In this document: positions 14,717 to 30,346 of the stretch, piece after piece | How positions within the stretch are numbered: position 1 is the first letter of the stretch | Layout of the letters: each line of letters starts with the position of its first letter | Source of the DNA: Candidatus Cryptobacteroides sp. | GTDB lineage: Bacteria > Bacteroidota > Bacteroidia > Bacteroidales > UBA932 | NCBI GenBank assembly: GCA_051870055.1 | Contig: JBJEBM010000040.1 | Span: forward strand, 697 to 64,696 | Direction of reading: 5' to 3' | Length of the DNA: 64,000 nucleotides | Program-made: the position numbers and the translations under genes | The notes under the pieces: model-generated | Seen by the model: the letters and a program-made list of their open reading frames with translations, nothing else | The model's database searches: none | What the model was told of the DNA's origin: nothing

Positions 14717-15067
14717 TTATTCGGATTTCTGTTTGAATGTGTATGTCCCGGAGTAGGTTCCGGCCTTGATTCTGATTGTTCCGGTCCTTTCAGCTCCGGA
14801 ATTGTTTGGAGAGATGCTGATGACGGATTCGCTGATTCCCTGTCCGCCTTTCGCCGGTTCGACAGTGAACCAGTCTTCTCCCTCAAGAGTCCAGCCGCAG
14901 GTGGCGAAGATGGTTACAGCCTTCGTCGCTCCCTGTGCAGGCTGTGCAGGAAGGACTGTCTGGATCACGGCTGTGTCGTGAATCCCGGATTCGTCCTCCT
15001 TCTGGCACGCCACTGACAGAAGTAATGGTGTGACAATGAGTGACAATAATGATAAACGATGTCTCAT
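14717..15067 (-). CDS. Small BACON-domain lipoprotein
   Basis: Start MRHRLS gives lipobox SVAC; W......W..V.P..G.....N....RTG.I pattern. Confidence 0.75.
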   Translation of the reverse strand: MRHRLSLLSLIVTPLLLSVACQKEDESGIHDTAVIQTVLPAQPAQGATKAVTIFATCGWTLEGEDWFTVEPAKGGQGISESVISISPNNSGAERTGTIRIKAGTYSGTYTFKQKSE

Positions 15068-15142
15068 AGTGCGATTAATTATGAAATACTTGTCTGCGTT
15101 ATGCGGTTCTTTCCACATCGGGATTGAATCGTTTCATAATAA

Positions 15143-15168: not shown

Positions 15169-15208
15169 AACTCAACTTGAATTTTTTATTGGCGACGCAA
15201 AAATTGCG

Positions 15209-15216
15209 TATCTTTG
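15209..15216 (+). promoter_or_regulatory. -7 promoter element (TATCTTTG) for the peptide deformylase gene
   Basis: TAnnTTTG match; argues for a start at 15240 or 15270 rather than 15177. Confidence 0.55.
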
Positions 15217-15239
15217 TATGTTTTATTATCAATTATAAT

Positions 15240-15860
15240 ATGGACCTGGGTTTTGTTTCAAAGTGCGGGATGAATGCTTTTCTGGCGGCTACCTTGGCGA
15301 TCAGTTTGATGTCGTGCTCGCAATCCGGAGGCTGGAGCGTGGAAGAAAAGTCGCTTATTGCCGGTAAAGGGCAGATTATGAGAGTCCTGACAGTTGATGA
15401 TTATGAGGACTCCCTGTTTTTGAGAAGGGCGACGCTGGAAATGACTCCGGCGATGGTGGCATCGGAGGAATACCGGCTGCTGGCAAGTAAAATGGTTGCC
15501 ACTGTGACCTCTCCTGAACAGGACGGAGTAGGTATAGCTGGACCGCAGGTGGGAATATCGAGGCGGATGGTCGCTGTGCAACGCTTTGATATTGAGGGAG
15601 AACCATTCAGGGTATATCCGAATATAAAAATAACAGCGCGCAGAGGAGCTGAAGAATGCGGCCCTGAAGGCTGCCTGAGTGTGCCCGGCCGCAGGGGAGT
15701 AGTCAGCCGGAGCCGGGACATTGACATTACGTATATTTCACCTGAAACCCTGAAGGATACAATGGAGACAGTCCTGGGTTTCACTGCGGTGATTTTCCAG
15801 CACGAATGTGACCATCTGGATGGCATCCTCTATACAGACCGGCTGGTGACAGGGCGCTGA
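15240..15860 (+). CDS. def: Peptide deformylase with N-terminal lipoprotein signal peptide
   Basis: All three PDF motifs are present (GVGIAGPQ, EGCLS, QHECDH). The N-terminus reads AFLAATLAISLMSC. Confidence 0.9.
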   Translation: MDLGFVSKCGMNAFLAATLAISLMSCSQSGGWSVEEKSLIAGKGQIMRVLTVDDYEDSLFLRRATLEMTPAMVASEEYRLLASKMVATVTSPEQDGVGIAGPQVGISRRMVAVQRFDIEGEPFRVYPNIKITARRGAEECGPEGCLSVPGRRGVVSRSRDIDITYISPETLKDTMETVLGFTAVIFQHECDHLDGILYTDRLVTGR

Positions 15861-15927: not shown

Positions 15928-16506
15928 ATGAATGAATTATCTGACAGATATCTTGTTATGCAGCTCGCCAAAGGCGGGAAAGATGCTTATAATGAACTGT
16001 TTGCCAGATATTATTCCAAAGTGAGGCGGTTTCTGGCATCCGTGCTGTTTTCGGAAGAGGGGGTAGATGATCTTGCCCAGAATGTTTTCCTGAAAATATG
16101 GGAGAAAAGGAGCTCATTGACAGGTATAAAATCGCTGGATGCCTACATTTTCGCAATTGCGAGAAATGAGGCCTGTGATTATATCCGGCATAATGCCGTG
16201 AAGAAAAAATTCGTTGATTCTGCCGGAGACATTGAAGAATATATGTGCGACCTTCAGATTTCGTATGACACTGAGAAGATAGAGGAAATAGTCAACAAGT
16301 GCGTCGCATCGATGCCTCAACAGAGGCAGGCCTGCTATAAGATGAGCCGTGAGATGCATCTCTCCAATCAGAAAATCGCTGACAGCCTGAATATATCCAA
16401 AAGAACTGTTGACCGCCACATCTCCCTGGCACTGAAAGATATAAAGAAAGCAATCGGCGGAGTGCTTTCAGGATATGCGCTGTTTATAATGTCCTCCTGG
16501 ATGTAA
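15928..16506 (+). CDS. ECF RNA polymerase sigma-70 factor
   Basis: DDLAQNVFLKIWE, YIFAIARN and IADSLNISKRTV motifs. Confidence 0.92.
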   Translation: MNELSDRYLVMQLAKGGKDAYNELFARYYSKVRRFLASVLFSEEGVDDLAQNVFLKIWEKRSSLTGIKSLDAYIFAIARNEACDYIRHNAVKKKFVDSAGDIEEYMCDLQISYDTEKIEEIVNKCVASMPQQRQACYKMSREMHLSNQKIADSLNISKRTVDRHISLALKDIKKAIGGVLSGYALFIMSSWM

Positions 16507-16523
16507 ATTGAACACAGAGAATT

Positions 16524-17639
16524 ATGGACCAGTTGTTATATCATTATTCACTTTGTATTGCATTGCCGTTGATGCTGTTTTTCGGCTTTGACATGCTGTT
16601 TGCGCGCGTGCCCGACAAGAGCAAGTTCTCCAACTTCCTGCTTTCCCGCAGATTGATGGGCGCCGCCCTGCTAATCCTTGCGGCAAACTATGCAGTGCAC
16701 TTTTTCTTTGCCATCAGGCTTAAAGATGTGAATGCCGCCATATTGGCCAATATGACAACATACTTTCTCTGCTATTGGCTGTTCAGTTCGGCCTTGATGA
16801 CGCTTTTGGACAGCAAGTACGTCACGAGAAAACGGTTTTCAATCCATCTGGTTCTGTGGCTGGCATTTACTGGATTGGCAGCTACTGAATCTCTCCTGCT
16901 TGCGGATTCCGTTTCCTGGGCGACAAGAGTCCTCGCCCTGTTATTGGTGATATACGGCCTGTTCCTTTCTATCCGTCTGCTGCATACGTACAAAATGGCC
17001 GTGAAGATGTTTGAAAACACGCATTCGGACGATATCGGGGCGTATATCAGCTGGTTGTCAGTTTTCACCTACTGGGCTGTCATTTTCGGAGTCAGTTGCG
17101 CGCTGCTGACCTTCCTGCCTGACAGGTATATTTTCATCTGGGTATTGTCGGCTGTGCCTTTCTACATATATCTTTATTGCTGCTATCACAACTATATGTT
17201 CTTTTATGAGAAGGTTGACGATGCCTTGAAGGACGATATCGGGATGCTGGAGGATGGCTGTGTCCTGCCGTCTGGCGAGGACAATATTGAAGATGTTCCC
17301 GTCTATCACTCTGACATCGCGCCGCGCATAGAGGAATGGATAAAGAGTGAAGGCTATCGCAAGCCGGGTCTCACGCTGAATGAACTGTCGGCGCAGCTCT
17401 GCACGAACCGCACTTATCTGTCGGAATATATAAACAGCGTATATCAGATGACTTTCCGGGACTGGATTACGGACTTGCGTATCGAGTGCGCAAAGCGCTT
17501 GATGGTGCAGAATCCGAAACTGCGTGTGCAGGATATTTCCGTGATGTCGGGCTTCCTTTCCCTCAGCCATTTCTCAAGGACATTCCGTGAAAAAGAAGGC
17601 TGCTCCCCGGCCAGATGGAGCAAGGTCAATCCCGAATAA
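16524..17639 (+). CDS. Membrane-anchored AraC family transcriptional regulator
   Basis: About 7 N-terminal TM segments; C-terminal TNRTYLSEYIN, F.D.I..LRI..AK and GF.S.S.F.R.F....G..P motifs. Confidence 0.9.
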   Translation: MDQLLYHYSLCIALPLMLFFGFDMLFARVPDKSKFSNFLLSRRLMGAALLILAANYAVHFFFAIRLKDVNAAILANMTTYFLCYWLFSSALMTLLDSKYVTRKRFSIHLVLWLAFTGLAATESLLLADSVSWATRVLALLLVIYGLFLSIRLLHTYKMAVKMFENTHSDDIGAYISWLSVFTYWAVIFGVSCALLTFLPDRYIFIWVLSAVPFYIYLYCCYHNYMFFYEKVDDALKDDIGMLEDGCVLPSGEDNIEDVPVYHSDIAPRIEEWIKSEGYRKPGLTLNELSAQLCTNRTYLSEYINSVYQMTFRDWITDLRIECAKRLMVQNPKLRVQDISVMSGFLSLSHFSRTFREKEGCSPARWSKVNPE

Positions 17640-17796: not shown

Positions 17797-19014
17797 ATGT
17801 ATATTAAAAATCACACAACGTTCAGAACCTTGCTGAACTTCGCCATTGTTTCAACCACATTCCTGTTCACCGCCTGCAGTGAAAAAGGACCGGACATCCC
17901 GTCTCCTACACCGACTTCGAATCCGGCAGGCTTGATAGAAGACCCTGAAAAATTGGCTATGCTTTATTCCCTGACAGACCTTGAGGTCGACAAGGGACGC
18001 ATATATGAAATGACATATACCGTGGATTACAAACTGGATGAAGCCCTGAATGCGGGGATTGTCGGAACGACCTCTCTCCAGCAGTTTGCAATGACTCACC
18101 TTATGGATCTTAAGTCTCCCAAGCCTCTGAGCATGCGTTACGATGCCGGGTGCAGCGCTTTTGCGTGCACAGACAAAGATTCTAGGGATTTTATTATGGG
18201 GCGCAACTTCGACTTCAACCACAAGGACGAGAAGGGCGATCGTATAATGATACCGGCTATTGTTGTCCATACCGCTCCTGCAGGAGGAAAGAAGTCTGTT
18301 TCTTTCGTCGATGGCCAGTTTGTCTATTTGAATAGCGGATTTTATACCGACGGGGAAACCGACCTCTCAATATTGATGGCCCTGCCATATCTTCTTCTTG
18401 ACGGAATCAACGAGGACGGATTTGCAATCAGTGTCCTCAAACTCGACGGCAATCCGACCCGCCAGCATTACTCTGACAGGAAAAATATTTTCACTACTGT
18501 TGCAATGCGAATGCTCCTTGACCGTGCCAGCACAGTCGAGGAGGCGACGAGAATGTTGGAGCAGTACAATATGTGTATGGATAACGACGAAGCAAGCTAT
18601 CATTTCTTTATGGCTGATGCCACCGGCGATTATGCGATTGTGGAATATACTTTCAAGGAGGGCGAGGAGTACCCGACTGAAATGGAAGTTCTCAAGAGAG
18701 ATGATGTGTGGCGCTATGTCACAAACTTTTACGCTTCTCCATCAATGATTGATTCTCCGCACGGAAGTGTGATTTCAACGCACGGGAAATGGCGCTATGA
18801 CACGCTGAAGGTCAATCTTGCAAAATACCAGTACAAGCTGGATCCTGCCCAGGCAATGTCATTGCTGGAAAAGGTTGCCCAGGGCCCTGATGATGAAGAG
18901 CAGAGGTCCACCGGCTTCACCCAGTGGTCGGAGGTCTTTAACCTCAGCAAGAGGACAGTCAGGATGTCCATCCTCAGGGAGTTTGACAAGACATTCAACT
19001 TTACAATCGAATAA
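17797..19014 (+). CDS. Ntn-hydrolase lipoprotein (linear amide C-N hydrolase / C45-C59-like)
   Basis: Lipobox FTAC; G|CSAF nucleophile site, GRNFD, DGINEDG, H...ADATG, TNF and TQWS motifs. Confidence 0.85.
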   Translation: MYIKNHTTFRTLLNFAIVSTTFLFTACSEKGPDIPSPTPTSNPAGLIEDPEKLAMLYSLTDLEVDKGRIYEMTYTVDYKLDEALNAGIVGTTSLQQFAMTHLMDLKSPKPLSMRYDAGCSAFACTDKDSRDFIMGRNFDFNHKDEKGDRIMIPAIVVHTAPAGGKKSVSFVDGQFVYLNSGFYTDGETDLSILMALPYLLLDGINEDGFAISVLKLDGNPTRQHYSDRKNIFTTVAMRMLLDRASTVEEATRMLEQYNMCMDNDEASYHFFMADATGDYAIVEYTFKEGEEYPTEMEVLKRDDVWRYVTNFYASPSMIDSPHGSVISTHGKWRYDTLKVNLAKYQYKLDPAQAMSLLEKVAQGPDDEEQRSTGFTQWSEVFNLSKRTVRMSILREFDKTFNFTIE

Positions 19015-19033: not shown

Positions 19034-20830
19034 ATGAAAAAATTATCAGTCTTTATTCTGGCAATGGCTGCCATTGCTGTGTCCTGTTCAAAAGATCCGT
19101 TCGACAATAACCCTGTAAAGCCAGACAAAGTTACGGATGCGGTTTATTTCGCAAGTTCGCTTCCGCCGGTTATCGACAAGGCCCTCCGGATGAATTTTGG
19201 CCAGATTACCACAAATCCGGATAATGCCCGGGTTATAGTGGTGGAGTCATCCGATTTGTCAGCTTACAGCGACATTGTCAAGGAAGCATGGGAAGATGGC
19301 AAGATCATCGTGGAGGTTGAACCGGATTGTTCTTCGCACGAGGAATTCTGGACGGCTATCGATGCTCCCTCCCTAATGTCTCCGGACAATGCTGATACGC
19401 CATTGCTCATAGCTGTGCGCAGGTATTCAAGTTTCATCCTGCATAATCCTCTCTCGCTCGATGAATATCTGTCCGACAATGAGGTGGAGCCCGAACCCGG
19501 AACGGCATCTGATGAAGCCTGGGAGGTGGAACTTGGGCCTGTGGGCATCGAATCCGATGAGGAGTACCTCGGCTCCAGAATGTCCTCGTTTGTAGATTGG
19601 GTCAATGAACATTCCCAGCCTGCATCTCCTGTCAATGAAGAAATTTCAGGCTATCAGAAGTTCAATGGAGAGCTTTCGTCGTTTATCTCCGACGAAAAGT
19701 ACACCCAAAGGATTACCGCGTCGTTCCCGGTCGGGGCCGACAAATTCAAGTTGTGCAAGCTTGCCTCATCAGACCCGGATATCATATCAAGGCATTCCGA
19801 GGTCAACGTTCTCATCACCATAACTCCCCTTTACGCTTATAAGGAGAACGGTAGCAACGCCGGCGACTACTATTTCGTGACAGTTTCCGTTATTTCCAAG
19901 AACGAAAAACTCTTCGGTACCTACAAACAGAAACACGGTGGAGTGTGGACGATTGCGCACGCATTCTACAGCGAGGATATTCATTGGACTGCGGATATCT
20001 GCAAACGCAACGGCAAGGGCATTAAAGTTGCCGATTTTATGGACAAGCAACGGCCGTCACCGGCTTCGACATCCGGCTCTACCACATATACTTCTTCACA
20101 TACCACGACATTGAATGTCACTGGGCAGGGAGGAGCTTCAGGCGGAAAACCGGCAGGCACTCTCACCGTCGGCGGCACGTTCTCCTGGAGCAACAGTGAG
20201 TCAAGACCGATGTCGGATATGTCAATCGAGATGGATACGGACGGATCCCGGGTCCAGTATCACTTCCTCAGCCACAACTTCTCCCATAATGACAATGCGA
20301 GAAAGGCAGTGCCGGCGCTTGCTAGGACTGACCAGGAGTGTATCAGCAGCTGGTGCTGGCACGTGGTGGATGTTGAAGACTATGATACCACCGAATTCTT
20401 GTTCACATTCCATCTTGATCCTCTGTACGGCTATATGTACCGTCACACATCCTGGTGGGGGGAAGGCCACGACAGGCACGGTGTACAACTTCTCCCGGAG
20501 GATAAGAGGGACTGGACATTCGCCATAAAACGGCCTGATAGAAGGCGTTTGGGAATTCTTGACTTCAAGTGTACAGACAGTTTGTATGTTTCCAATGTCC
20601 AGGTCATCAATGGTGCAGGTGAGGTAAAGGCTTCGGCTCTCTCTGCGTATGAACGGAACGTGCATCTTAATTTCCAGCTTCCTGTCGGCAACTACAAGAT
20701 TGAGTATTATGCCAAGAACGGAAATTCTGGTTCCGGCAAGGGAAAGAAATACCGCATCGGCAATCTTACAGTTTCGACGGCCAAAACCACCGAAACCTTT
20801 TCAGGCAAAGGTGCGGAAGTAAAGGAGTGA
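19034..20830 (+). CDS. Lipoprotein with putative leukocidin/hemolysin-type beta-pore-forming domain (component A)
   Basis: Lipobox AVSC at the MKKLSV start; Ser/Thr/Gly-rich stem PASTSGSTTYTSSHTTTLNVTGQGG...TVGGTFSWSNSES...D; paralogous to the next gene. The CDS is secure; the function is inferred. Confidence 0.55.
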   Translation: MKKLSVFILAMAAIAVSCSKDPFDNNPVKPDKVTDAVYFASSLPPVIDKALRMNFGQITTNPDNARVIVVESSDLSAYSDIVKEAWEDGKIIVEVEPDCSSHEEFWTAIDAPSLMSPDNADTPLLIAVRRYSSFILHNPLSLDEYLSDNEVEPEPGTASDEAWEVELGPVGIESDEEYLGSRMSSFVDWVNEHSQPASPVNEEISGYQKFNGELSSFISDEKYTQRITASFPVGADKFKLCKLASSDPDIISRHSEVNVLITITPLYAYKENGSNAGDYYFVTVSVISKNEKLFGTYKQKHGGVWTIAHAFYSEDIHWTADICKRNGKGIKVADFMDKQRPSPASTSGSTTYTSSHTTTLNVTGQGGASGGKPAGTLTVGGTFSWSNSESRPMSDMSIEMDTDGSRVQYHFLSHNFSHNDNARKAVPALARTDQECISSWCWHVVDVEDYDTTEFLFTFHLDPLYGYMYRHTSWWGEGHDRHGVQLLPEDKRDWTFAIKRPDRRRLGILDFKCTDSLYVSNVQVINGAGEVKASALSAYERNVHLNFQLPVGNYKIEYYAKNGNSGSGKGKKYRIGNLTVSTAKTTETFSGKGAEVKE

Positions 20831-20836
20831 TAGTAT

Positions 20837-22129
20837 ATGAATAGGAGCCAGTTTATCCCGGTGTTTCTGCTCTGCCTGCTTACTGGTATCGTGCTTTCTT
20901 GTGACAAGATAGAAAGCGACATCAGAGAATTACACAATGACCCTTCCGATGTGCTGACATTCAAGAAGACTTTTGACATAAGTATTCCCGGGCAGGTCAT
21001 AGACAGCAGAAAGGTGGACGGCTACTTGTTTGAAGTTCATTCTCCGGAGGTGAAGGCCTCCGGAGTCTTCGATTTGTATCTCCAGATTTTTCCCCTTTAT
21101 GGTTTCGGCAATGGTTATGCCGCCGGAGACTATTATTGCATTGAAGGTTATATGCTCAGCCACAATGCGAAGATTTATGCTGAACGCGCTGACAGGGATG
21201 TAAAGATAAATGGTTGGTATCCTGAAGATTATACGTTGGAATTCGAACTGCTGTCCCCTGAGGGCAAATCGCTCGATACCGATGAGGTCGAGTTCCTGGT
21301 CCAGCCTGAACCGTCCACGACAATAGGCACTACAACCTACAAGAAAGGGTCAACTTTCACCCTGGGCCTCAGCCTGACATTCGGGTCTGTGAAGCCGGAG
21401 AATCCGACAAGCATCCTTTCCTGGGCGAACACCCTGTTGGGAGGAATCTCTTTCGGATACAAATACGAGAACAGCTCCACTCAGGAACTTCCTGACCAGT
21501 CGGTCGCTCTCTCGACGGAAACCAGCACCTGCGCTGTGAAGTATTCGTTCATTACCAACAATGACACGGGAGGTTATGCGACATCGAACATTCCGGCGAT
21601 ATTCAGGACAGACCAGATTGCGGCTTTCAGCTGGGTATGGCATCTCAAGAAAGGCAAGTATTGCGCCAATGACTATGATTTCGGCAATATGAAAATGAGG
21701 GCTGTCGTCCATCCGAAATACAGGACTGCCTACAACGGAAAGATTGTCGATACTCACGGGCGCGCGATATTCAAGGGCAGGGCTTCGTATCAGCACGATG
21801 ACCTGATTGCCGAGCTCGATTTGCCAGCGATGAACAGAATCCCTACCGGCGATATCAAATTGAAATTTGCCACCCTGGGCAGCAATAATCAACTTACTGA
21901 CCTCAAAGTTTACAGGACAGGGGAGTCAGGGACAGCAAAGGAACCATATTATTCTGACCAGGGAATATATGGGAGGAACGAGGTTATCACCATCCCTCTC
22001 CGTGTCGGCAAATACGATATCCTGTACAAGATTGTCGACGGTTCAAGCGGCAAGACAATCTCCTCCGATATGATTTCCGGCGTCGAGGTTTTCGAAAACA
22101 AATCCACAGAGACATTCACCCCGTTTTAA
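20837..22129 (+). CDS. Lipoprotein with putative leukocidin/hemolysin-type beta-pore-forming domain (component B)
   Basis: Lipobox VLSC; stem PSTTIGTTTYKKGSTFTLGLSLTFG...GGISFGYKYENSSTQELPD; shares PLY..AGDYY and RTDQ....SW.WH with the previous gene. Confidence 0.55.
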   Translation: MNRSQFIPVFLLCLLTGIVLSCDKIESDIRELHNDPSDVLTFKKTFDISIPGQVIDSRKVDGYLFEVHSPEVKASGVFDLYLQIFPLYGFGNGYAAGDYYCIEGYMLSHNAKIYAERADRDVKINGWYPEDYTLEFELLSPEGKSLDTDEVEFLVQPEPSTTIGTTTYKKGSTFTLGLSLTFGSVKPENPTSILSWANTLLGGISFGYKYENSSTQELPDQSVALSTETSTCAVKYSFITNNDTGGYATSNIPAIFRTDQIAAFSWVWHLKKGKYCANDYDFGNMKMRAVVHPKYRTAYNGKIVDTHGRAIFKGRASYQHDDLIAELDLPAMNRIPTGDIKLKFATLGSNNQLTDLKVYRTGESGTAKEPYYSDQGIYGRNEVITIPLRVGKYDILYKIVDGSSGKTISSDMISGVEVFENKSTETFTPF

Positions 22130-22256: not shown

Positions 22257-22287
22257 ATAATTGTGTAATCGGATAAATACGTTGATT

Positions 22288-23172
22288 ATGGACAATAACA
22301 CAGCCGGATGGAAAGAGATATGGGACTCAATTCCCGAAGAGGACACGCTGGAAAGCAGACGGGCGTTTGCCCGGTTCTGGGCGGAAGTGCGCAGGCGCAG
22401 GCTTGCCCCGTTCAGAAAGGCCCTGAGATGGTATTCTTATGCGGCCGCGGCCCTTTTTGTTCCGCTTGCTGCCGGCATTGCGTTATATGTGCACGTCAAT
22501 GACAGACGCCCGCAGGAATATGCAGAGCTTGTCGTTCCGCAAGGCCAGCGGGATTCTATCCGCCTTGCCGACAATACTTTAGTATGGCTGAACGCGGGTT
22601 CCCGACTGATTTATCCTGACAAATTTTCCGACAAGGACAGAAAAGTCTATCTGACTGGAGAGGCTTTTTTCCAGGTGGAGAAAGACAGTCGGCGGCCTTT
22701 TATAGTCAGCGCCGGTGAAGTAAGTGTCCGGGTTCTTGGAACGAAATTCAATTTCTCGACATACGAGGATTCAGAATCAGTCTATGTGAGCCTTGTCCAG
22801 GGCTCGGTAAGACTTGAGTCCGAGCGGTCTGGGGTTCACAGCAGCGTTATGCTTGTTCCCGGGGATATCGTGCGGTATCACAGGCCGGATGGGGTCTTCT
22901 CGCGTGCTTCCGGCAGTGCCGCGGCGACTGCAAACTGGATGGACGGTGGCTTCTATTTCAATGACAGGCCACTTGACGAGATAATAAGAAGTTTCGAGCG
23001 TTCTTTCAATGTCAGAATCACCTTGACTGACACATCTATAGGTAAAGAGCGGTATTCGCTTGCATTTGTCAACAATGAGACTGTTGACCAGATAATGTCC
23101 GCCATAGCATATAATGGACGGCTTTCAGTCTCCTGCAAAGATGGAGAATATTCTTTGTCCCGGAGGAAATAA
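22288..23172 (+). CDS. FecR family anti-sigma factor
   Basis: TM helix; LADNTLVWLNAGS.L.YP, LTGEAFFQV and VLGTKFN motifs. ATG at 22288. Confidence 0.92.
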   Translation: MDNNTAGWKEIWDSIPEEDTLESRRAFARFWAEVRRRRLAPFRKALRWYSYAAAALFVPLAAGIALYVHVNDRRPQEYAELVVPQGQRDSIRLADNTLVWLNAGSRLIYPDKFSDKDRKVYLTGEAFFQVEKDSRRPFIVSAGEVSVRVLGTKFNFSTYEDSESVYVSLVQGSVRLESERSGVHSSVMLVPGDIVRYHRPDGVFSRASGSAAATANWMDGGFYFNDRPLDEIIRSFERSFNVRITLTDTSIGKERYSLAFVNNETVDQIMSAIAYNGRLSVSCKDGEYSLSRRK

Positions 23173-23192
23173 CCATTTAATTAAAAACAATA

Positions 23193-26100
23193 ATGAAGTT
23201 AACCGTTAGATTATCGGCTGTTCTCATGCTGATAATGCTGTCTTTCTATTCTTTTACGGCAGCAGCGCAGCAGAGAATCAGCTTTGTGAAAACCGATGTG
23301 CCCATAAAGGAGGTCATCGAGACTCTGAGGAGTGAATGGGGATACTCTTTCGCTTACAAAACCAGCGAAGTGGATTGCAACAGACACGTGAGTATCTCAG
23401 TATCAAATGTTTCCATTGAAGAAGTGCTGGACCGTCTGTTCAAGGACCAGCCGGTGGACTATCTTGTAAAAGGAAGAATCATCTATTTGACTTCCTCTAA
23501 GCGGAATGTCAATGCCAAAGATGCTTCTGCCCTGAGCGGAAAAGTGCTGGACGACAGGGGAAAACCTGTTCCCGGAGCGTATGTGGTAGAAAAGGGTACC
23601 AAAAATGCGGTGGTTACAGGCAATGACGGATCTTTCACATTCCCAAGCCTGTCTGATAATGCAGTGCTTGTGATTTCCTCATTGGGCTTCGAGGAAAAAG
23701 AAGAGCCTGTCGCAGGAAGGAAGACCATCATTATCGAGCTGAAAGAGAATAATTACCTGCTGGACGAGACCGTGGTTGTCGGATATGCATCCCAGAAGAA
23801 AGCCACATTGACGGGTTCTGTGTCTTCGGTAAGGATTGACGACAATTCCATAAGCCGCCCTGTGACAAGCGTTTCCAGCTCTCTTGCCGGTATGGCCGCC
23901 GGCGTCACGGTGAATCAGACGACGGGCAAGCCGGGTTCTTCTGCTACAATAAGAATCAGGGGAATCGGCACCCTGAACAACAATTCCCCGCTGGTCCTTG
24001 TGGACGGGGTGGAATGGAGTATGGACAATCTCAACCCGGCTGACATTGAGAGCATCAGCATCCTGAAAGATGCCGCTTCCACGGCGATTTACGGAGCGCA
24101 GGGCGCCAATGGAGTCATCCTTGTCACAACAAAACAGGGAGAAGGCAAAATCAAATTCGACTACAACGGCTATGTGTCCATCCAGAAAGCACACAACAAA
24201 CTGTCGATGATCTCGGATTATGCTGATTATATGGAACTTGTCAATGAGTCACTGACAAACGTCGACAATACTCCATATTATACCCAGTCAACCATCGATA
24301 TGTGGCGGAGGGCCAAAAAATACCCTTATGCTGTCAACGAATACGGCGTACCGAATTATATTGCATATCCTAACACGGAATGGTTCAGCGAGATATTCAA
24401 GACTGGCGTATCCCACAACCATCACCTTTCCATATCCGGCTCATCCAACGGCATCCGGTATTTCGCCGGCGTCGGATATACGGACAATCCCGGTATAATG
24501 AATGTGGCTGACGGGGTCAATTCGGGTGCGAAAAAACTGACTGTCCAGGCGAAAGGAGAAGGCACTGTCGGGAAATGGCTGACACTGGGTACAAGCCTCA
24601 ACGGGACATTTGACAATCTTGGAGCGGCCAGCACGGCCAACGTCTTCAATTATCTGAGCCGCACGTGTCCCGGAATATGGCCTGGAGAGCCTTACAAGTA
24701 CGGTGTCCCTGCATCTTCGGAAGAATCCACTACGGCCAACAACCTGCTCAGCTGGCTTGACCGTCAGGGTGAGGACAAGAGGGAGCACTATTCTTTGACC
24801 GGCTATTTCAAGGCGAAAATCTATAAAGGCCTCCAGCTCGATGGAAAAGCCAATTATGTCTCATACAGAAGAGATTACAAATATTTTGGAAGCGGAAGGA
24901 CAAGCACCTGGGACTACACCAAGAACGAGTCCCGAAGCGATTCGAATCTTGCGGACCAGCAGGTCACCAATACTGCCCAGCATTCAAAACAGCTTAATAC
25001 TGAATTAATTCTCCGCTATAATGTGAATATCGCCGACAGCCACGAAATCACGGCATTGGCGGGATATTCTACCCAGCATTACAATTACGAGGAATTCTCC
25101 GCGAGGAAGAAAGGAATGACCTCCGAGTCACTTACCGATCTCAACGCCCTTGCTGCAATGGACAATATCTCCGGATATTCCACAGAATGGGCGATGGCCT
25201 CAGTTTTCGGCAGGGTGAACTATTCATACAAAAGCCGTTATATCATTGAAGGCAACATCAGATATGACGGGTCGTCCCGCTTCTCTCCAAAGTCGCGCTG
25301 GGGTCTGTTCCCTTCAGTCTCCGGGGCCTGGAGAATTTCAGAAGAACCGTTTATGTCGTCTGCGAGGTCCTGGCTGGACAATCTGAAGATTCGTGCGTCA
25401 TATGGTGTCACCGGTAACAACAGGACCTCCAATTATGCCTGGCAGGCCACATACGCCACATCCACTATCGTGATGGAAGGTGGGAAGACGTCTGCAATGT
25501 ACACCAGCAAAATCGGAAATGAGAACCTCGAGTGGGAGACCACCAAGACAACGGATGTGGGACTTGATTTCGCATTCCTGGGCAACAAGCTGAGCGGTGA
25601 ACTGGACTGGTACAACAAAAACACCAGCGGAATCCTGTTCGTTCCTTCTCTCAGCATCACGATGGGCCAGGTGACAGGTGCCACTGAAAATATCGCCGAG
25701 GTGAACAACAAAGGATTCGAGGTCAATCTGAAATGGAATGACAGAGTGGGGGATTTCAGATACTCGGTAGGGGCGAACATATCTTTCAACCGGAACAAGG
25801 TCACCAAGTACAAGGGTGCTCTTGTGAAGGGCTGGACAGAAGACGGACAGTACGTGAACAATCTCGCGGATGTGTCAGAAAGCGGATTCGGCGGCAGGAT
25901 TGCCGAAGGTTATAAATTAGGAGAGACATATCTCAGGAAAATCTACCGCGGAACAGGCAACTATGACGGCAGCGGAGTGCTGGACCTCAATGCCGGACCG
26001 AAAGACGGAATCATCAGGACTGAAGCCGATATGGCCTGGGTCCAGATGATGGTGGATGCCGGTTACAAGTTCTGCGGCATCAATATGGTGTCAAAGAACA

Positions 26101-26675
26101 CTCTCTGGTACGGAGACATCATTTATGCGGATTCCAACGGCGATGGAAACTATGGCGATACCAACGACCAGGACTTCACGGGACATACTTCCACCCCGAA
26201 ATATACATACGGAATCAACATCTCCTTGGGATGGAAAGGCATTGACCTTTATATGCTTTTCTCCGGTGCCGGTGGCAATTACCTGTACTGGCAGACGGCT
26301 CCGAGCCTTGCTTCCGGATACAATACTTACTCGTTCCTCATAAAGAACAGGTATTTCTATGATCCTGAAAATCCGGATGATCCCCGCACCAATATCAATG
26401 CGAAGTATCCGCGTATGGGTGGCCGCAATACGGGAACTGCCAGCGAGTTCTGGGAATACAAGGGCGACTATCTGAAACTGAAGAATATCCAGTTGGGCTA
26501 CACCTTCCCGTCCTCCCTTATGCGCAGGATAAGAATTGACAAACTGCGTATCTATGCGACTGCGGACAATATCTTCACCATCACCGATTATCCCGGCCTT
26601 GACCCGGAAATCGGGACAAGCATAACCTATCCGCTTATGAAGCAATATGCAATGGGAATTCAACTTACTTTTTAG
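23193..26675 (+). CDS. SusC/RagA TonB-dependent transporter with N-terminal signalling (STN) domain
   Basis: VVVGY, PLVLVDG, ILKDAASTAIYGAQGANGVILVTTK, RYDGSSRF and LEWET motifs. Confidence 0.95.
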   Translation: MKLTVRLSAVLMLIMLSFYSFTAAAQQRISFVKTDVPIKEVIETLRSEWGYSFAYKTSEVDCNRHVSISVSNVSIEEVLDRLFKDQPVDYLVKGRIIYLTSSKRNVNAKDASALSGKVLDDRGKPVPGAYVVEKGTKNAVVTGNDGSFTFPSLSDNAVLVISSLGFEEKEEPVAGRKTIIIELKENNYLLDETVVVGYASQKKATLTGSVSSVRIDDNSISRPVTSVSSSLAGMAAGVTVNQTTGKPGSSATIRIRGIGTLNNNSPLVLVDGVEWSMDNLNPADIESISILKDAASTAIYGAQGANGVILVTTKQGEGKIKFDYNGYVSIQKAHNKLSMISDYADYMELVNESLTNVDNTPYYTQSTIDMWRRAKKYPYAVNEYGVPNYIAYPNTEWFSEIFKTGVSHNHHLSISGSSNGIRYFAGVGYTDNPGIMNVADGVNSGAKKLTVQAKGEGTVGKWLTLGTSLNGTFDNLGAASTANVFNYLSRTCPGIWPGEPYKYGVPASSEESTTANNLLSWLDRQGEDKREHYSLTGYFKAKIYKGLQLDGKANYVSYRRDYKYFGSGRTSTWDYTKNESRSDSNLADQQVTNTAQHSKQLNTELILRYNVNIADSHEITALAGYSTQHYNYEEFSARKKGMTSESLTDLNALAAMDNISGYSTEWAMASVFGRVNYSYKSRYIIEGNIRYDGSSRFSPKSRWGLFPSVSGAWRISEEPFMSSARSWLDNLKIRASYGVTGNNRTSNYAWQATYATSTIVMEGGKTSAMYTSKIGNENLEWETTKTTDVGLDFAFLGNKLSGELDWYNKNTSGILFVPSLSITMGQVTGATENIAEVNNKGFEVNLKWNDRVGDFRYSVGANISFNRNKVTKYKGALVKGWTEDGQYVNNLADVSESGFGGRIAEGYKLGETYLRKIYRGTGNYDGSGVLDLNAGPKDGIIRTEADMAWVQMMVDAGYKFCGINMVSKNTLWYGDIIYADSNGDGNYGDTNDQDFTGHTSTPKYTYGINISLGWKGIDLYMLFSGAGGNYLYWQTAPSLASGYNTYSFLIKNRYFYDPENPDDPRTNINAKYPRMGGRNTGTASEFWEYKGDYLKLKNIQLGYTFPSSLMRRIRIDKLRIYATADNIFTITDYPGLDPEIGTSITYPLMKQYAMGIQLTF

Positions 26676-26687
26676 ACTATCTATATC

Positions 26688-28502
26688 ATGACATATCGTA
26701 ACAAGACAATAACAGCTCTCATCCTGCTTTGTGCCGGCGCAGCCAGCTGTGTCGATTTGGACACCGTATCGAAGAGTGATATGATGTCGAACAATATGTG
26801 GACTACCGAAGAGCTGGTGGATGCAGCAGTAGCCGGCATCTACAAAGTATTCGTCCCGGATCCATCCAAGATGTATCCCAATGTGGAGACAAATGTAAGC
26901 CATCTGCGTCCTGAAGTGTGCGGGTTCGCCTCCATTGAGATGGCACATACCTTCTTCTTGAACAGTCCGTCTTATTCGGCGGGGGATTCATACCTGAGCA
27001 ATGAGTGGAAAGCCTTGTACACAGGCGTTTCCAGATGCAATGATGCACTTCACAACCTGCCTTCATCCGCTGTCACCGGGGCAAAACGGGCCCGCCTCAT
27101 CGCAGAATGCAAGTTTATGAGGGCCTGGTTCTATACCCGCCTGAATATGCTTTTCAACGGCGTCCCGGTCTATCTTTCACCGATAACGGCGAGCGAGTGC
27201 ACAAAAGGCCAGTCTTCTCCTGATGAAGTGTGGGAGGTTGTCCTCAAAGATATCCAGGACTGTCTGGATGAGCCTGAAATGCCGCTCAACACTCTCAAGA
27301 CCAATTATGGCCGTCCTTCAAAAGGGGCTGCGTACGCATTGAGGGGAATGATATATATGTGGACCCGTCAGTACAGCAAGGCCATACCTGATTTCGAGGA
27401 GGTCGGAAAATGCGGATATGGGCTCTGGGAAGGAAAATATATTGATTTATTCAAAGAGCAGAACGAGAAGAGCAAGGAGATGATTCTTCCTGTCCAGTGC
27501 ATTTCCGAGAATGGCTATGCGGATCCCCAGACACAGCAGATATTCGGAAATCGCTCCACTCTTCAGGGCGTCAACTTCGTCATTCCGTCCTCAGAGTTCG
27601 TTGACTCGTACCAGAATGCAGACGGCTCCGAGTTCTCCTGGTCCCAGATTTTCCCTGACTGGGACAAGCTCACTCCGGTCCAGAGGGAAGTCTTTTTCGT
27701 CCGGGACGGAATGAATTCCAATTCTTCATCCGGTTTCCAGAATCAGAAAAACACAATCGTTGGAAGAGTGTCCAAGACTGTTTGGGACAATTACTATCTC
27801 GACAATGGGAATCAGGCAAGAATAGCAAAGGCTTACTCCGGAAGGGATCCGAGGCTGATGCAGACAATCTTCACCCCGTCAAGCGCCACAATGACCTATG
27901 CGAATACCGGCGGAAAACAGTCCCTCAAGACTTTCCTCTGGCCATATATCAATGCGGGAAACGGGGACAGTGCCGGAGACCTGTGGTCAGACCAGCGCCA
28001 GTGTTTCTGCTATATGTACAGAAAGTTCGTCGTTACGGACAACAATGCCCTTACCAGGGACAGGATGGGTATGGACTGGCCTCTTATGCGCTACACGGAT
28101 GTATGGCTGCTTTATGCCGAGGCTTTGAATGAGGTCGGACGTATGTCGGAGGCCATCAGCGCCGTGAACAAGATCCGCCAGAGAGCCGGGATGCCGCTGT
28201 TGACTGAAGGAGGCGGAGGAGCGAACGGAGTCACGGACAAAGAGGATATGCTGAGGCGCATCCAATATGAGCGCCGCGTGGAATTGTGCGCTGAAGGTGT
28301 GAACTACTTCGATGAGGTCCGCTGGGGCACATTGAAACAAATGAAGTTCAAAGGCCAGGACAGCTACGACTTTACGAATATGTGGGGAACGAGGGCGAAA
28401 TGGCTGATGTATTTCAGGAACAATATGTGGCCTTGGGCCGTGCCCCTCTCCGAGACGCAGAGAAATCCGAATCTGACTCCTACGGACGGATGGAACTATT
28501 AG
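26688..28502 (+). CDS. RagB/SusD family lipoprotein
   Basis: Lipobox AASC; RDPRL, MRYTDVWLLYAEALNE and ERRVELCAEG..YFD..RW motifs. Confidence 0.95.
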   Translation: MTYRNKTITALILLCAGAASCVDLDTVSKSDMMSNNMWTTEELVDAAVAGIYKVFVPDPSKMYPNVETNVSHLRPEVCGFASIEMAHTFFLNSPSYSAGDSYLSNEWKALYTGVSRCNDALHNLPSSAVTGAKRARLIAECKFMRAWFYTRLNMLFNGVPVYLSPITASECTKGQSSPDEVWEVVLKDIQDCLDEPEMPLNTLKTNYGRPSKGAAYALRGMIYMWTRQYSKAIPDFEEVGKCGYGLWEGKYIDLFKEQNEKSKEMILPVQCISENGYADPQTQQIFGNRSTLQGVNFVIPSSEFVDSYQNADGSEFSWSQIFPDWDKLTPVQREVFFVRDGMNSNSSSGFQNQKNTIVGRVSKTVWDNYYLDNGNQARIAKAYSGRDPRLMQTIFTPSSATMTYANTGGKQSLKTFLWPYINAGNGDSAGDLWSDQRQCFCYMYRKFVVTDNNALTRDRMGMDWPLMRYTDVWLLYAEALNEVGRMSEAISAVNKIRQRAGMPLLTEGGGGANGVTDKEDMLRRIQYERRVELCAEGVNYFDEVRWGTLKQMKFKGQDSYDFTNMWGTRAKWLMYFRNNMWPWAVPLSETQRNPNLTPTDGWNY

Positions 28503-28522
28503 AATTTTGAACTTTCAAGAAT

Positions 28523-30346
28523 ATGTCAATGAAAAATAAAGTATTGATTCTGATTCTGTCGGTCCTGGCGCTGGGCTGTTCCGAGCATACAGGTGATGCC
28601 GGACAGAAAGGCCAGCCCAATACCGGCTCAAACGGACATCCGGTCCTGATGATAAAGGCCGGAGATGAAGTCAAGATCAAAGAAATGGTCAATTCCAGCC
28701 CGAAGATGAGACTGGTTCAGCAGAAAGTATATTCACAGGCCAATGCTGCAGTCAAGAGCGGCCTTTCCTCATACGTTCTTACAGGCATCAGGCTTCTTGA
28801 TGTCAGCCGCCGCTCTCTACAGAACCTCTTCTCCCTGTCGTACGCCTACAGGATGTCCAAACAGCAGCAGTATCTTGATGCCGCCATTGCCGAACTGGAT
28901 GCGGTATGCGCTTTCCCGGACTGGCATCCGTCTCATTATCTTGATGTTGCGGAAATGTGTATGGGCGTTGCGATTGCCTACGACTGGCTTTATGAGTGGC
29001 TCCCCCAGCAGACCCGCTATGCTGCAGAGAAGGCGATAGAGGAATTCGCCTTGAACACCGGAGTTGACCCTGCTTACAACAAAGGTTTCCTCAACAGCGG
29101 AGGCAACTGGAACCAGGTCTGCTCTGCCGGTCTGTTTTACGGTGCGGCAGCCATCAAAGACAAATCTCCTGAACTCGCCGCAAGGGTTATGGAAATGTGC
29201 AGGACGTCCATAAAGGCTGCGACGGATTCCTACAATCCTGACGGAACGTATGCGGAAGGACCCGGATATTGGGCCTATGGAACTGATTTCAACGTGATGC
29301 TGAATTATGCCGACAATCTTCTCGGGCATACGCCTTATGTCCCTGACGGATTCAGGAAGACCCCGTATTATTATTTCCACACAATCGCTCCTTCGGGAAA
29401 GCGCTACAATTATTCGGACTGCGGACTTGCTGTCACTCCTGATATCGCAGAGTTCTATTTCGCCGGACTGACCGGTGACAATTCGCTCCTTTGGTGGGAT
29501 ATGAAGATGATAGACGATAATATTGCCGACAACCGTCTGCTACCGGCCATTCTCGTTATTGCCAAAGACCTGGATATGAGCAAAATACCGGCGCCGTCAG
29601 AGAACCATTGGACTGGAGGTGGAAGGACTCCGGTATATTTCGCCCGCAACGGCTGGAACTGTGACTCCTCATATATAGGAATCAAGGGCGGCAAAGCCCA
29701 GGACTCCCATTCCCATATGGATGCGGGATCATTTGTATATGAGGCGGAAGGGCTCAGATGGGCAATTGATTATGGCAATGAGAACTACACCAATGTGGAA
29801 AACGCCGGTGTGTCCCTATGGAACATGTCCCAGAATTCAGGCCGCTGGAAACTGCTGGCCTACAACAACAGGCAGCACAATACCATTACTCTCGGAGGCA
29901 AGGACTTCGTAGTATCGGGCAAGGGCGAGATAACTGACCTGATTGATTCGGACGGCAAACAGGGTGTTGTCCTGGATCTGACCCCTTGTTATGATAATGT
30001 GTCAAAAGTGACCAGGACCGCCTGCCTTTATGATGACGGCTCGATGGAGACGGTGGATGTGGTCAAGCCGAATTCCGATACAGAGTATTGCTGGACAATG
30101 ATTTCTGATTACAGAGTGAGCGCAGATACGGGGAATGACGGAAGTGTTCTCCTCTACTGGGAAGGCAAGAAACTTATGGTGACTGTGTCAGCATATCCGG
30201 AAGGCACTTCGGTAAAGGCCTCCTCTGAACTTTTCACGCCGGTAACGTCTTACGAGTCAATGAGAGGCCGCCGCACTACATTCACGGCGACAGTGCCGTC
30301 CGGTGTTGAAGCGAGATTCACAGTTGTATTGAAACCTGTCAAATGA
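28523..30346 (+). CDS. Heparinase II/III-like polysaccharide lyase lipoprotein
   Basis: Lipobox ALGC; NWNQV, DG.Y.EG.GYW.YG, HSHMDAGSF and HNT motifs of alpha/alpha-toroid lyases. Confidence 0.8.
   Translation: MSMKNKVLILILSVLALGCSEHTGDAGQKGQPNTGSNGHPVLMIKAGDEVKIKEMVNSSPKMRLVQQKVYSQANAAVKSGLSSYVLTGIRLLDVSRRSLQNLFSLSYAYRMSKQQQYLDAAIAELDAVCAFPDWHPSHYLDVAEMCMGVAIAYDWLYEWLPQQTRYAAEKAIEEFALNTGVDPAYNKGFLNSGGNWNQVCSAGLFYGAAAIKDKSPELAARVMEMCRTSIKAATDSYNPDGTYAEGPGYWAYGTDFNVMLNYADNLLGHTPYVPDGFRKTPYYYFHTIAPSGKRYNYSDCGLAVTPDIAEFYFAGLTGDNSLLWWDMKMIDDNIADNRLLPAILVIAKDLDMSKIPAPSENHWTGGGRTPVYFARNGWNCDSSYIGIKGGKAQDSHSHMDAGSFVYEAEGLRWAIDYGNENYTNVENAGVSLWNMSQNSGRWKLLAYNNRQHNTITLGGKDFVVSGKGEITDLIDSDGKQGVVLDLTPCYDNVSKVTRTACLYDDGSMETVDVVKPNSDTEYCWTMISDYRVSADTGNDGSVLLYWEGKKLMVTVSAYPEGTSVKASSELFTPVTSYESMRGRRTTFTATVPSGVEARFTVVLKPVK

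Follow-up and report, generated by a model that had tools for sequence, protein, structure and literature searches.

The window analysed here, a stretch of 64,000 nucleotides from Candidatus Cryptobacteroides sp. (assembly GCA_051870055.1, contig JBJEBM010000040.1), encodes two adjacent paralogous predicted lipoproteins, hereafter A and B, whose predicted structures almost certainly place them in the fold family of alpha-haemolysin, the leukocidins and the Vibrio cholerae cytolysin (VCC). We propose that A and B form a two-component small beta-barrel pore toxin carried on lipoproteins, in which A would be activated by removal of a pro-domain and which would be aimed at other gut bacteria, a reading to which we give an even chance of being right as a whole. 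Beyond the fold, it is very probable that these proteins form pores, it is probable that they act as two components of one pore, and analogy with known systems somewhat favours a bacterial target. These grades are the components of the overall estimate and were set by judgement. The two genes and their parts are:

19034 to 20830, plus strand: component A, a lipoprotein of 598 residues with a pro-domain, a cytolysin domain and a C-terminal beta-sandwich
19130 to 19618, plus strand: pro-domain-like alpha/beta domain of A (residues ~33-195; structural alignment by VIA with 8jbq and 1xez)
19682 to 20542, plus strand: cytolysin domain of A (residues ~217-503; structural matches at Z 10-13)
20087 to 20218, plus strand: stem of A (Y352-D395), a Gly-rich amphipathic beta-hairpin with a short turn
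20546 to 20821, plus strand: C-terminal transthyretin/CnaB-like beta-sandwich of A (~90 residues; Z 7-8.4 to several such domains)
20837 to 22129, plus strand: component B, a lipoprotein of 430 residues with a cytolysin domain and a C-terminal beta-sandwich, without pro-domain
21338 to 21496, plus strand: stem of B (Y168-D220), a hydrophobic hairpin whose loop is 9 residues longer and holds a Trp
21839 to 22126, plus strand: C-terminal beta-sandwich of B, homologous to that of A (A/B alignment, VIA matches)

A sequence-only reading of this DNA had described tandem lipoprotein genes here, and both open reading frames were found at the positions it gave, on the plus strand and 6 bp apart. In a single pairwise comparison the proteins are paralogous (98/364 identities, 27%, E 6e-24), and the four pairs of sequence blocks quoted by that reading all occur in the translations and are colinear in this alignment. 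In each, a signal peptide ends at a cysteine (C18 in A, C22 in B) followed by lysine and acidic residues (Lys/Asp/Glu), and a simple pattern finds a lipobox-like cysteine in 114 of 141 full-length-like family representatives; both proteins are thus presumably lipidated. The residues after the cysteine had been likened to the Bacteroidetes surface-export signal: they are present in both proteins, but the match is a likeness that we judged by eye against the consensus of that signal. A locus labelled Ca. Cryptobacteroides (L010) encodes an A that is 100% identical to that of the window. Among DNA sequencing runs, the best match is to a pig gut metagenome, possibly the sample from which the window came.

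The fold was assigned from AlphaFold2 models (mean pLDDT 77.3 for A and 77.8 for B), which were compared with known structures by Foldseek and by VIA structural alignment against 48,161 chains. Among the Foldseek matches listed, all 36 for A and all 31 for B are toxins of the alpha-haemolysin family (best E 3e-10 and 5e-8), and the top seven VIA matches of each protein belong to the same family, with unrelated structures at Z 8.4 or lower. These matches support the earlier leukocidin/VCC-like call. The model of A (residues 38-504) aligns with V. campbellii pro-alpha-haemolysin (8jbq, chain positions 0-453) at Z 17.0 over 350 residues (root-mean-square deviation, rmsd, 4.6) and with VCC (1xez) at Z 16.5 over 325 residues (rmsd 4.4). 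The model of B (residues 31-334) aligns with the core only of 1xez (chain positions 135-453), at Z 14.4 over 225 residues (rmsd 4.9). The core of A also matches LukF, HlgB, PVL, alpha-haemolysin, NetF and CytK (Z 10-13, rmsd mostly 3-4, 190-230 residues).

At the level of sequence, a 30-sequence profile of A gave three matches among PDB sequences, with CytK first (E 0.053, gap-free across the stem), and a 45-sequence family profile found CytK over the stem at E 8.7e-4; PDB sequence searches with A alone or with an alignment of B returned no match. The search for the Pfam Leukocidin family (PF07968) that had been suggested along with the earlier reading is negative for A and B themselves, which have no family match in direct scans of Pfam or NCBIfam, and for their close relatives (0/30 in each of two sets). 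In another set 2 of 45 match weakly, and among distant members 2 of 78 score above the cut-off and one more below it. The Pfam families of MACPF and thiol-activated cytolysins gave no match to A or B at E up to 1, and it is the alpha-haemolysin-type fold that accounts for the core, not those of the BSAP and CDCL toxins.

The two proteins differ at their N-termini. The cytolysin core begins near residue 225 in A and near residue 40 in B, so the N-terminal excess of A claimed earlier is real and amounts to ~185 residues rather than the ~200 first estimated. Mature pore-form chains, which lack the pro-region, align with 222-228 residues of A, ~125 fewer than the pro-toxins; since A aligns with the pro-toxins across the pro-region as well as the core, its N-terminal domain resembles the VCC pro-domain, as the sequence-only reading had suspected. 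A low-confidence linker (residues 198-212, by pLDDT) follows this domain, whose counterpart is missing from B, which in the structural alignment opens straight into the core. After the core, ~94 residues of A and ~96 of B are modelled as one beta-sandwich and not as beta-trefoil or beta-prism lectins; its transthyretin/CnaB-like architecture, matched at Z 7-8.4, is a common arrangement. The sandwich of A is the least conserved of the four regions of that protein (37% mean pairwise identity) and is a candidate targeting domain.

The stems are the most conserved of the four regions in both proteins (55% in A, 50% in B). The stem regions had been placed at about 20050-20270 and 21300-21550, and they map to 20054-20266 (P341-F411 of A) and 21305-21550 (P157-F238 of B). 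Hydrophobic and polar residues alternate on both stem strands in all six groups examined, with hydropathies of +1.5/-1.9 and +1.8/-0.6 on the two strands in the A clade and +2.2/-1.4 on strand 1 of B. The stem of A aligns without gaps to that of CytK. The longer hairpin loop proposed for B also holds: from Tyr to Asp the stem has 44 residues in 19/19 A relatives and 53-55 in 19/19 B relatives (53 in the window), and the Trp of the long loop is invariant in 19/19 B relatives.

We surveyed the pairing of the genes in 80 loci (L045-L124). A whole B follows 23 of the 24 A genes (gap of -1 to 141 bp), the 24th having its B cut by the contig end, and of the 26 B genes, 23 are preceded by a whole A and the other three lie at contig starts. 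The order is always A then B, giving 23 complete pairs with the remainder cut by contig ends, and neither gene occurs alone in the surveyed loci where the flanks are visible. Two loci (L057, L058) carry A-B-A-B arrays of two diverged pairs, in which the B after each A belongs to the matching subclade. A tree of 121 genes of at least 380 codons, from which shorter fragments were dropped, groups 26 genes in clade A, 27 in B, 19 in C and 19 in D, plus 30 single genes; C and D form a second pair with a similar pattern, 18 of 19 being whole and the rest cut or partial. IQ-TREE analysis of a 33-row subset supports A and B as separate clades (100/99 each) and also gives strong support to C and to D. 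The conservation of the gene pair expected from the earlier reading is therefore found, with fixed order and separate clades, and the distances within A and within B correlate (r 0.85 over 24 pairs).

In the best tree, A-B and C-D stand on opposite sides of a branch supported at 96/96, with single genes on both sides. Approximately unbiased (AU) tests marginally reject the grouping of A with C (p 0.044) but are compatible with a single clade of all four (p 0.157). The two pairs may thus have arisen independently or from a single origin. Some copies are frameshifted, namely an A in L012 (1273-3061) and a B in L015 (3315-4596), by assembly error or decay.

Most B relatives are longer than the B of the window (713-745 residues), with ~300 additional N-terminal residues that match a fimbrillin protein of the Pfam family Mfa_like_1 (E 2.8e-7; hhalign 96.6% over 245 columns inside the Pfam-covered stretch); the fimbrillin-like domain has no match among PDB sequences. 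Short forms of B are nested among long ones in the tree, and the window copy has therefore likely lost this domain.

The A profile gathers 511 clusters at 50% identity, whose named members are hypothetical proteins of Cryptobacteroides, Bacteroidales, Prevotella, Muribaculaceae and Bacteroidaceae. The family matches 76 of 400 Cryptobacteroides genomes, 3 of 200 genomes of its own taxonomic family, 2 of 400 in the order and, at weak E, 1 of 400 in the phylum. In a second taxonomic family 8 of 201 genomes match, with single genes in the seven loci examined there. These sparse matches do not show absence, because large families are under-sampled. Two further forms were seen: shorter single lipoproteins (~490-525 residues) of another Bacteroidales family (L129, 6833-8302, and L141-L144), of which the L129 member ends at the cytolysin core without the C-terminal sandwich, and a weakly matching protein (E 2.9e-5) from a Bacteroidota genome of greater distance (L131, 158-1591) that combines an alpha/beta-like N-terminal region with a cytolysin-like core and has no obvious lipobox.

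The hetero-oligomer modelling proposed with the earlier reading places the A-B complex above its three controls (0.38, where the best control has 0.00), although the score is weak. At least 75% of the contacts agree between runs, and partner pLDDT is at least 82. In the benchmark of this score, the threshold is passed by 116 of 157 solved pairs and by 2 of 215 mismatched ones.

Upstream of the pair, two further genes complete a cassette, neither of which had figured in the sequence-only reading, nor had the fimbrillin-fused form of B:

16524 to 17639, plus strand: regulator of the AraC family (Pfam HTH_18, E 3.9e-19) whose N-terminal region is hydrophobic; the cassette begins with this gene
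17797 to 19014, plus strand: C45/Ntn cysteine amidohydrolase lipoprotein with lipobox C27 and predicted nucleophile C119 (Pfam CBAH 5e-13, AAT 8e-11)

The C45 protein matches the NCBIfam C45_proenzyme model at 1.2e-19, under that model's cut-off; its predicted nucleophile is invariant in 15/15 aligned proteins, and among solved structures it comes nearest to choloylglycine hydrolases and penicillin V acylases. The regulator belongs to the one cluster of AraC homologues among the neighbours (22 genes), of which 18 immediately precede an A-B or C-D locus in the same orientation. Copies of the cassette are 82-90% identical in DNA: homology runs from the AraC start codon (as in L010 and L011) or from C45 to the stop codon of B. 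Since these copies have different neighbours, we conclude from the DNA comparison that C45, AraC and A-B travel together as a relocating cassette; no transposase was seen at its copies. In the window it is flanked by genes that we take, from their sequences, to be an ECF-sigma-like gene (15928-16506) and a FecR-SusC-SusD run (22261-30346), and such genes being usually contiguous, this suggests that the cassette was inserted between them. Further upstream are a small BACON-domain protein (14717-15118, minus strand) and a peptide deformylase whose N-terminus resembles that of a lipoprotein (15177-15860, plus strand). Four RNA-library assemblies contain contigs of relatives (~88-90% alike), one of which spans C45-A-B; they were not counted as expression because DNA carry-over is possible.

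The linkage of C45 was counted by hand from the 54 loci scoring at least 420 bits with a profile built from neighbours of the pair. Of these, 28 lie next to a pair (in one case 2.1 kb away), four lie next to a divergent single gene and 22 are alone. Such top-scoring genes occur in 35 of 45 pair-bearing genomes and in 18 of ~346 others, counts in which kin are not independent and the genome samples may differ slightly; weaker homologues occur in 157 of 391 genomes. The idea of C45 as an exclusive partner of the pair was rejected on account of these weaker homologues and of the 22 lone copies. The window C45 gene is the only close copy in the host genome. In L152, L153, L154 and L156 the C45 lipoprotein gene is immediately followed by a very divergent single family gene (a fragment in L154, 39-57 bits in the other three), and in L146-L151, L155 and L157-L171 near-cognate C45 lipoproteins stand amid housekeeping genes without a toxin neighbour, some in genomes without any family match. 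In L148 (723-5835), three tandem coiled-coil-like lipoproteins that are not family members by profile precede the C45 gene. Lone copies may reflect a pattern like that of orphan immunity genes, or a general amidase. The most likely role of C45 is to protect the producer or to mature the toxin, its linkage making it a candidate for immunity or activation.

Joining these elements, A and B would receive a lipid anchor and reach the cell surface or vesicles, and a VCC-like pro-domain would keep A inactive until a protease cuts the flexible linker. The C-terminal sandwiches would then attach to the target, in most relatives with the aid of the fimbrillin domain of B, and A and B would alternate in a ring, each inserting one hairpin, the short Gly-rich one of A and the more hydrophobic one of B, anchored beyond the membrane by its Trp-bearing loop. 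The probable site of the pore would be the outer membrane of rival gut bacteria. VCC forms its pore after proteases have removed the pro-domain (PMC12369381). The antibacterial reading draws on the lipoprotein format, the patchy presence (76/400) and the relocating cassette, which parallel BSAP and CDCL (PMC12853789, PMC11169675). A fuller version, rather unlikely as a whole, makes this a three-protein antibacterial weapon: capped A and B (pilin-fused in most relatives, the pilin being of type V) would open a pore in rival Bacteroidales, C45 would protect by cutting amide-linked surface lipids or would activate the toxin, lone C45 copies would be orphan immunity genes, and pairing would have arisen twice.

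Several observations weigh against the two-component antibacterial pore. The stems have low confidence in both models (pLDDT ~50 in A, below 50 at residues 170-187 and 191-212 in B), and their lengths differ by 9 residues. At complex scores of 0.60 or lower fell only 18 of the 157 solved complexes, plus both passing mismatches, and likeness to solved leukocidin pairs may explain why A-B passes. The correlated distances of A and B are expected of any linked genes; 30 family genes have no adjacent family member, so that in this family a single subunit can be enough; and 22 of the 54 top-scoring C45 genes have no family neighbour. No small dedicated immunity gene was found among the neighbours of the family loci. 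Other members of the alpha-haemolysin family also target eukaryotes. VCC itself attacks eukaryotic cells and needs cholesterol (PMC12369381).

The last points lead to a pore of the same two components directed at eukaryotic gut cells (protozoa, fungi or host cells), which we consider unlikely. The structural matches are without exception cytolysins whose names refer to eukaryotic targets, ceramide promotes VCC in addition to its need for cholesterol (PMC12369381), a classical immunity gene was not found among the neighbours, and the fimbrillin-like domain of B relatives could serve as an adhesin; yet relatives of the CDC toxins that became Bacteroidota lipoproteins kill bacteria (PMC11169675), and a sandwich of ~90 residues stands in place of the VCC lectin domains. 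It is quite improbable that A and B are two independent homo-oligomeric toxins in tandem with different targets. The common single-gene members, the complete core, stem and C-terminal domain of each protein and the unequal stems would fit such toxins, but neither gene stands alone where flanks are visible, the order is fixed even in the A-B-A-B arrays, and a B without pro-domain would be a risky stand-alone toxin. A non-inserting B (surface anchor, chaperone or dominant-negative self-protector) beside a pore-forming A would account for its long stem loop, its lack of a pro-domain, its frequent pilin-like domain and the lack of another small immunity gene among the neighbours; we hold this to be very improbable, given that the hairpin of B is cleanly amphipathic and its most conserved region. 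Finally, the fold could have been domesticated as a channel or surface structure of the producer's own outer membrane (uptake, adhesion), with no role as a weapon. The FecR-SusC-SusD genes adjoining the window cassette, the lipid anchors that tie both proteins to the producer and the co-encoded amidase are compatible with this, whereas the variable neighbours of close copies and the retained VCC-like inhibitory pro-domain make it highly improbable.

A and B belong, by their models, to the alpha-haemolysin/VCC structural family and are neither VCC nor staphylococcal leukocidins proper. With VCC/HlyA (1xez) and the V. campbellii pro-toxin (8jbq), A shares a pro-domain, linker and cytolysin domain with pre-stem, and B the cytolysin domain. 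They differ from VCC in sequence (~9% identity), in the lipoprotein signal, in having one beta-sandwich where VCC has beta-trefoil and beta-prism lectins, and in being two paralogues, with the pro-domain on one subunit only, where VCC is a homo-heptamer. The core fold is also that of staphylococcal HlgAB/CB, PVL, LukED, LukGH and alpha-haemolysin, CytK and NetB/NetF, and the stem of A has the length of that of CytK. As in bi-component leukocidins, two diverged paralogues are adjacent in fixed order with single-gene relatives alongside; unlike these soluble, secreted single-domain proteins of ~300 residues, A and B have a lipobox, an extra C-terminal domain, a pro-domain on A and a Gram-negative gut host. 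The pairing likely arose separately from the staphylococcal S/F pairs, because no solved toxin is as near in sequence to A and B as they are to one another and to the single genes of Bacteroidales.

By analogy, the best functional counterparts are the CDCL pairs, two-component and protease-activated with an immunity lipoprotein (PMC11169675), and A-B likely works like them. Both have two lipoprotein-type subunits and a co-encoded surface lipoprotein, and both are mobile and patchy in gut Bacteroidales. They differ in fold and predicted pore (alpha-haemolysin fold and 1-2 nm here, CDC fold and a giant pore in CDCL) and in the third gene, here the C45 amidase. BSAPs are likewise pore toxins in the form of surface lipoproteins, which bind the receptor through their C-terminal domain and may carry a spacer domain at the N-terminus (PMC12853789), but they have a MACPF fold and a single component. 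The earlier suggestion of a class different from BSAP stands for the fold; the two-component lipoprotein pore is already known from CDCL (PMC11169675), so the novelty lies in the fold class and not in the concept. We found no description of alpha-haemolysin-family lipoproteins in Bacteroidales in the full-text literature, mostly without subscription papers and supplements, where a mention in a table is possible; the words hemolysin and leukocidin do not occur in the available text of a 2025 review of Bacteroidales antagonism (PMC11901371).

In the literature consulted, Bacteroidales pore toxins are MACPF (BSAP) or CDC-like (CDCL), and A-B would add a third classical beta-pore fold in the form of surface lipoproteins. 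This large family escapes Pfam for the most part, its members are annotated as hypothetical, and about one fifth of the sampled Cryptobacteroides genomes carry it. Its single genes and two paired clades form a natural series for the study of how two-component pores evolve. If A-B is antibacterial, the family would be an unrecognised force in the structure of gut communities, and the alpha-haemolysin fold would have been turned on bacterial membranes.

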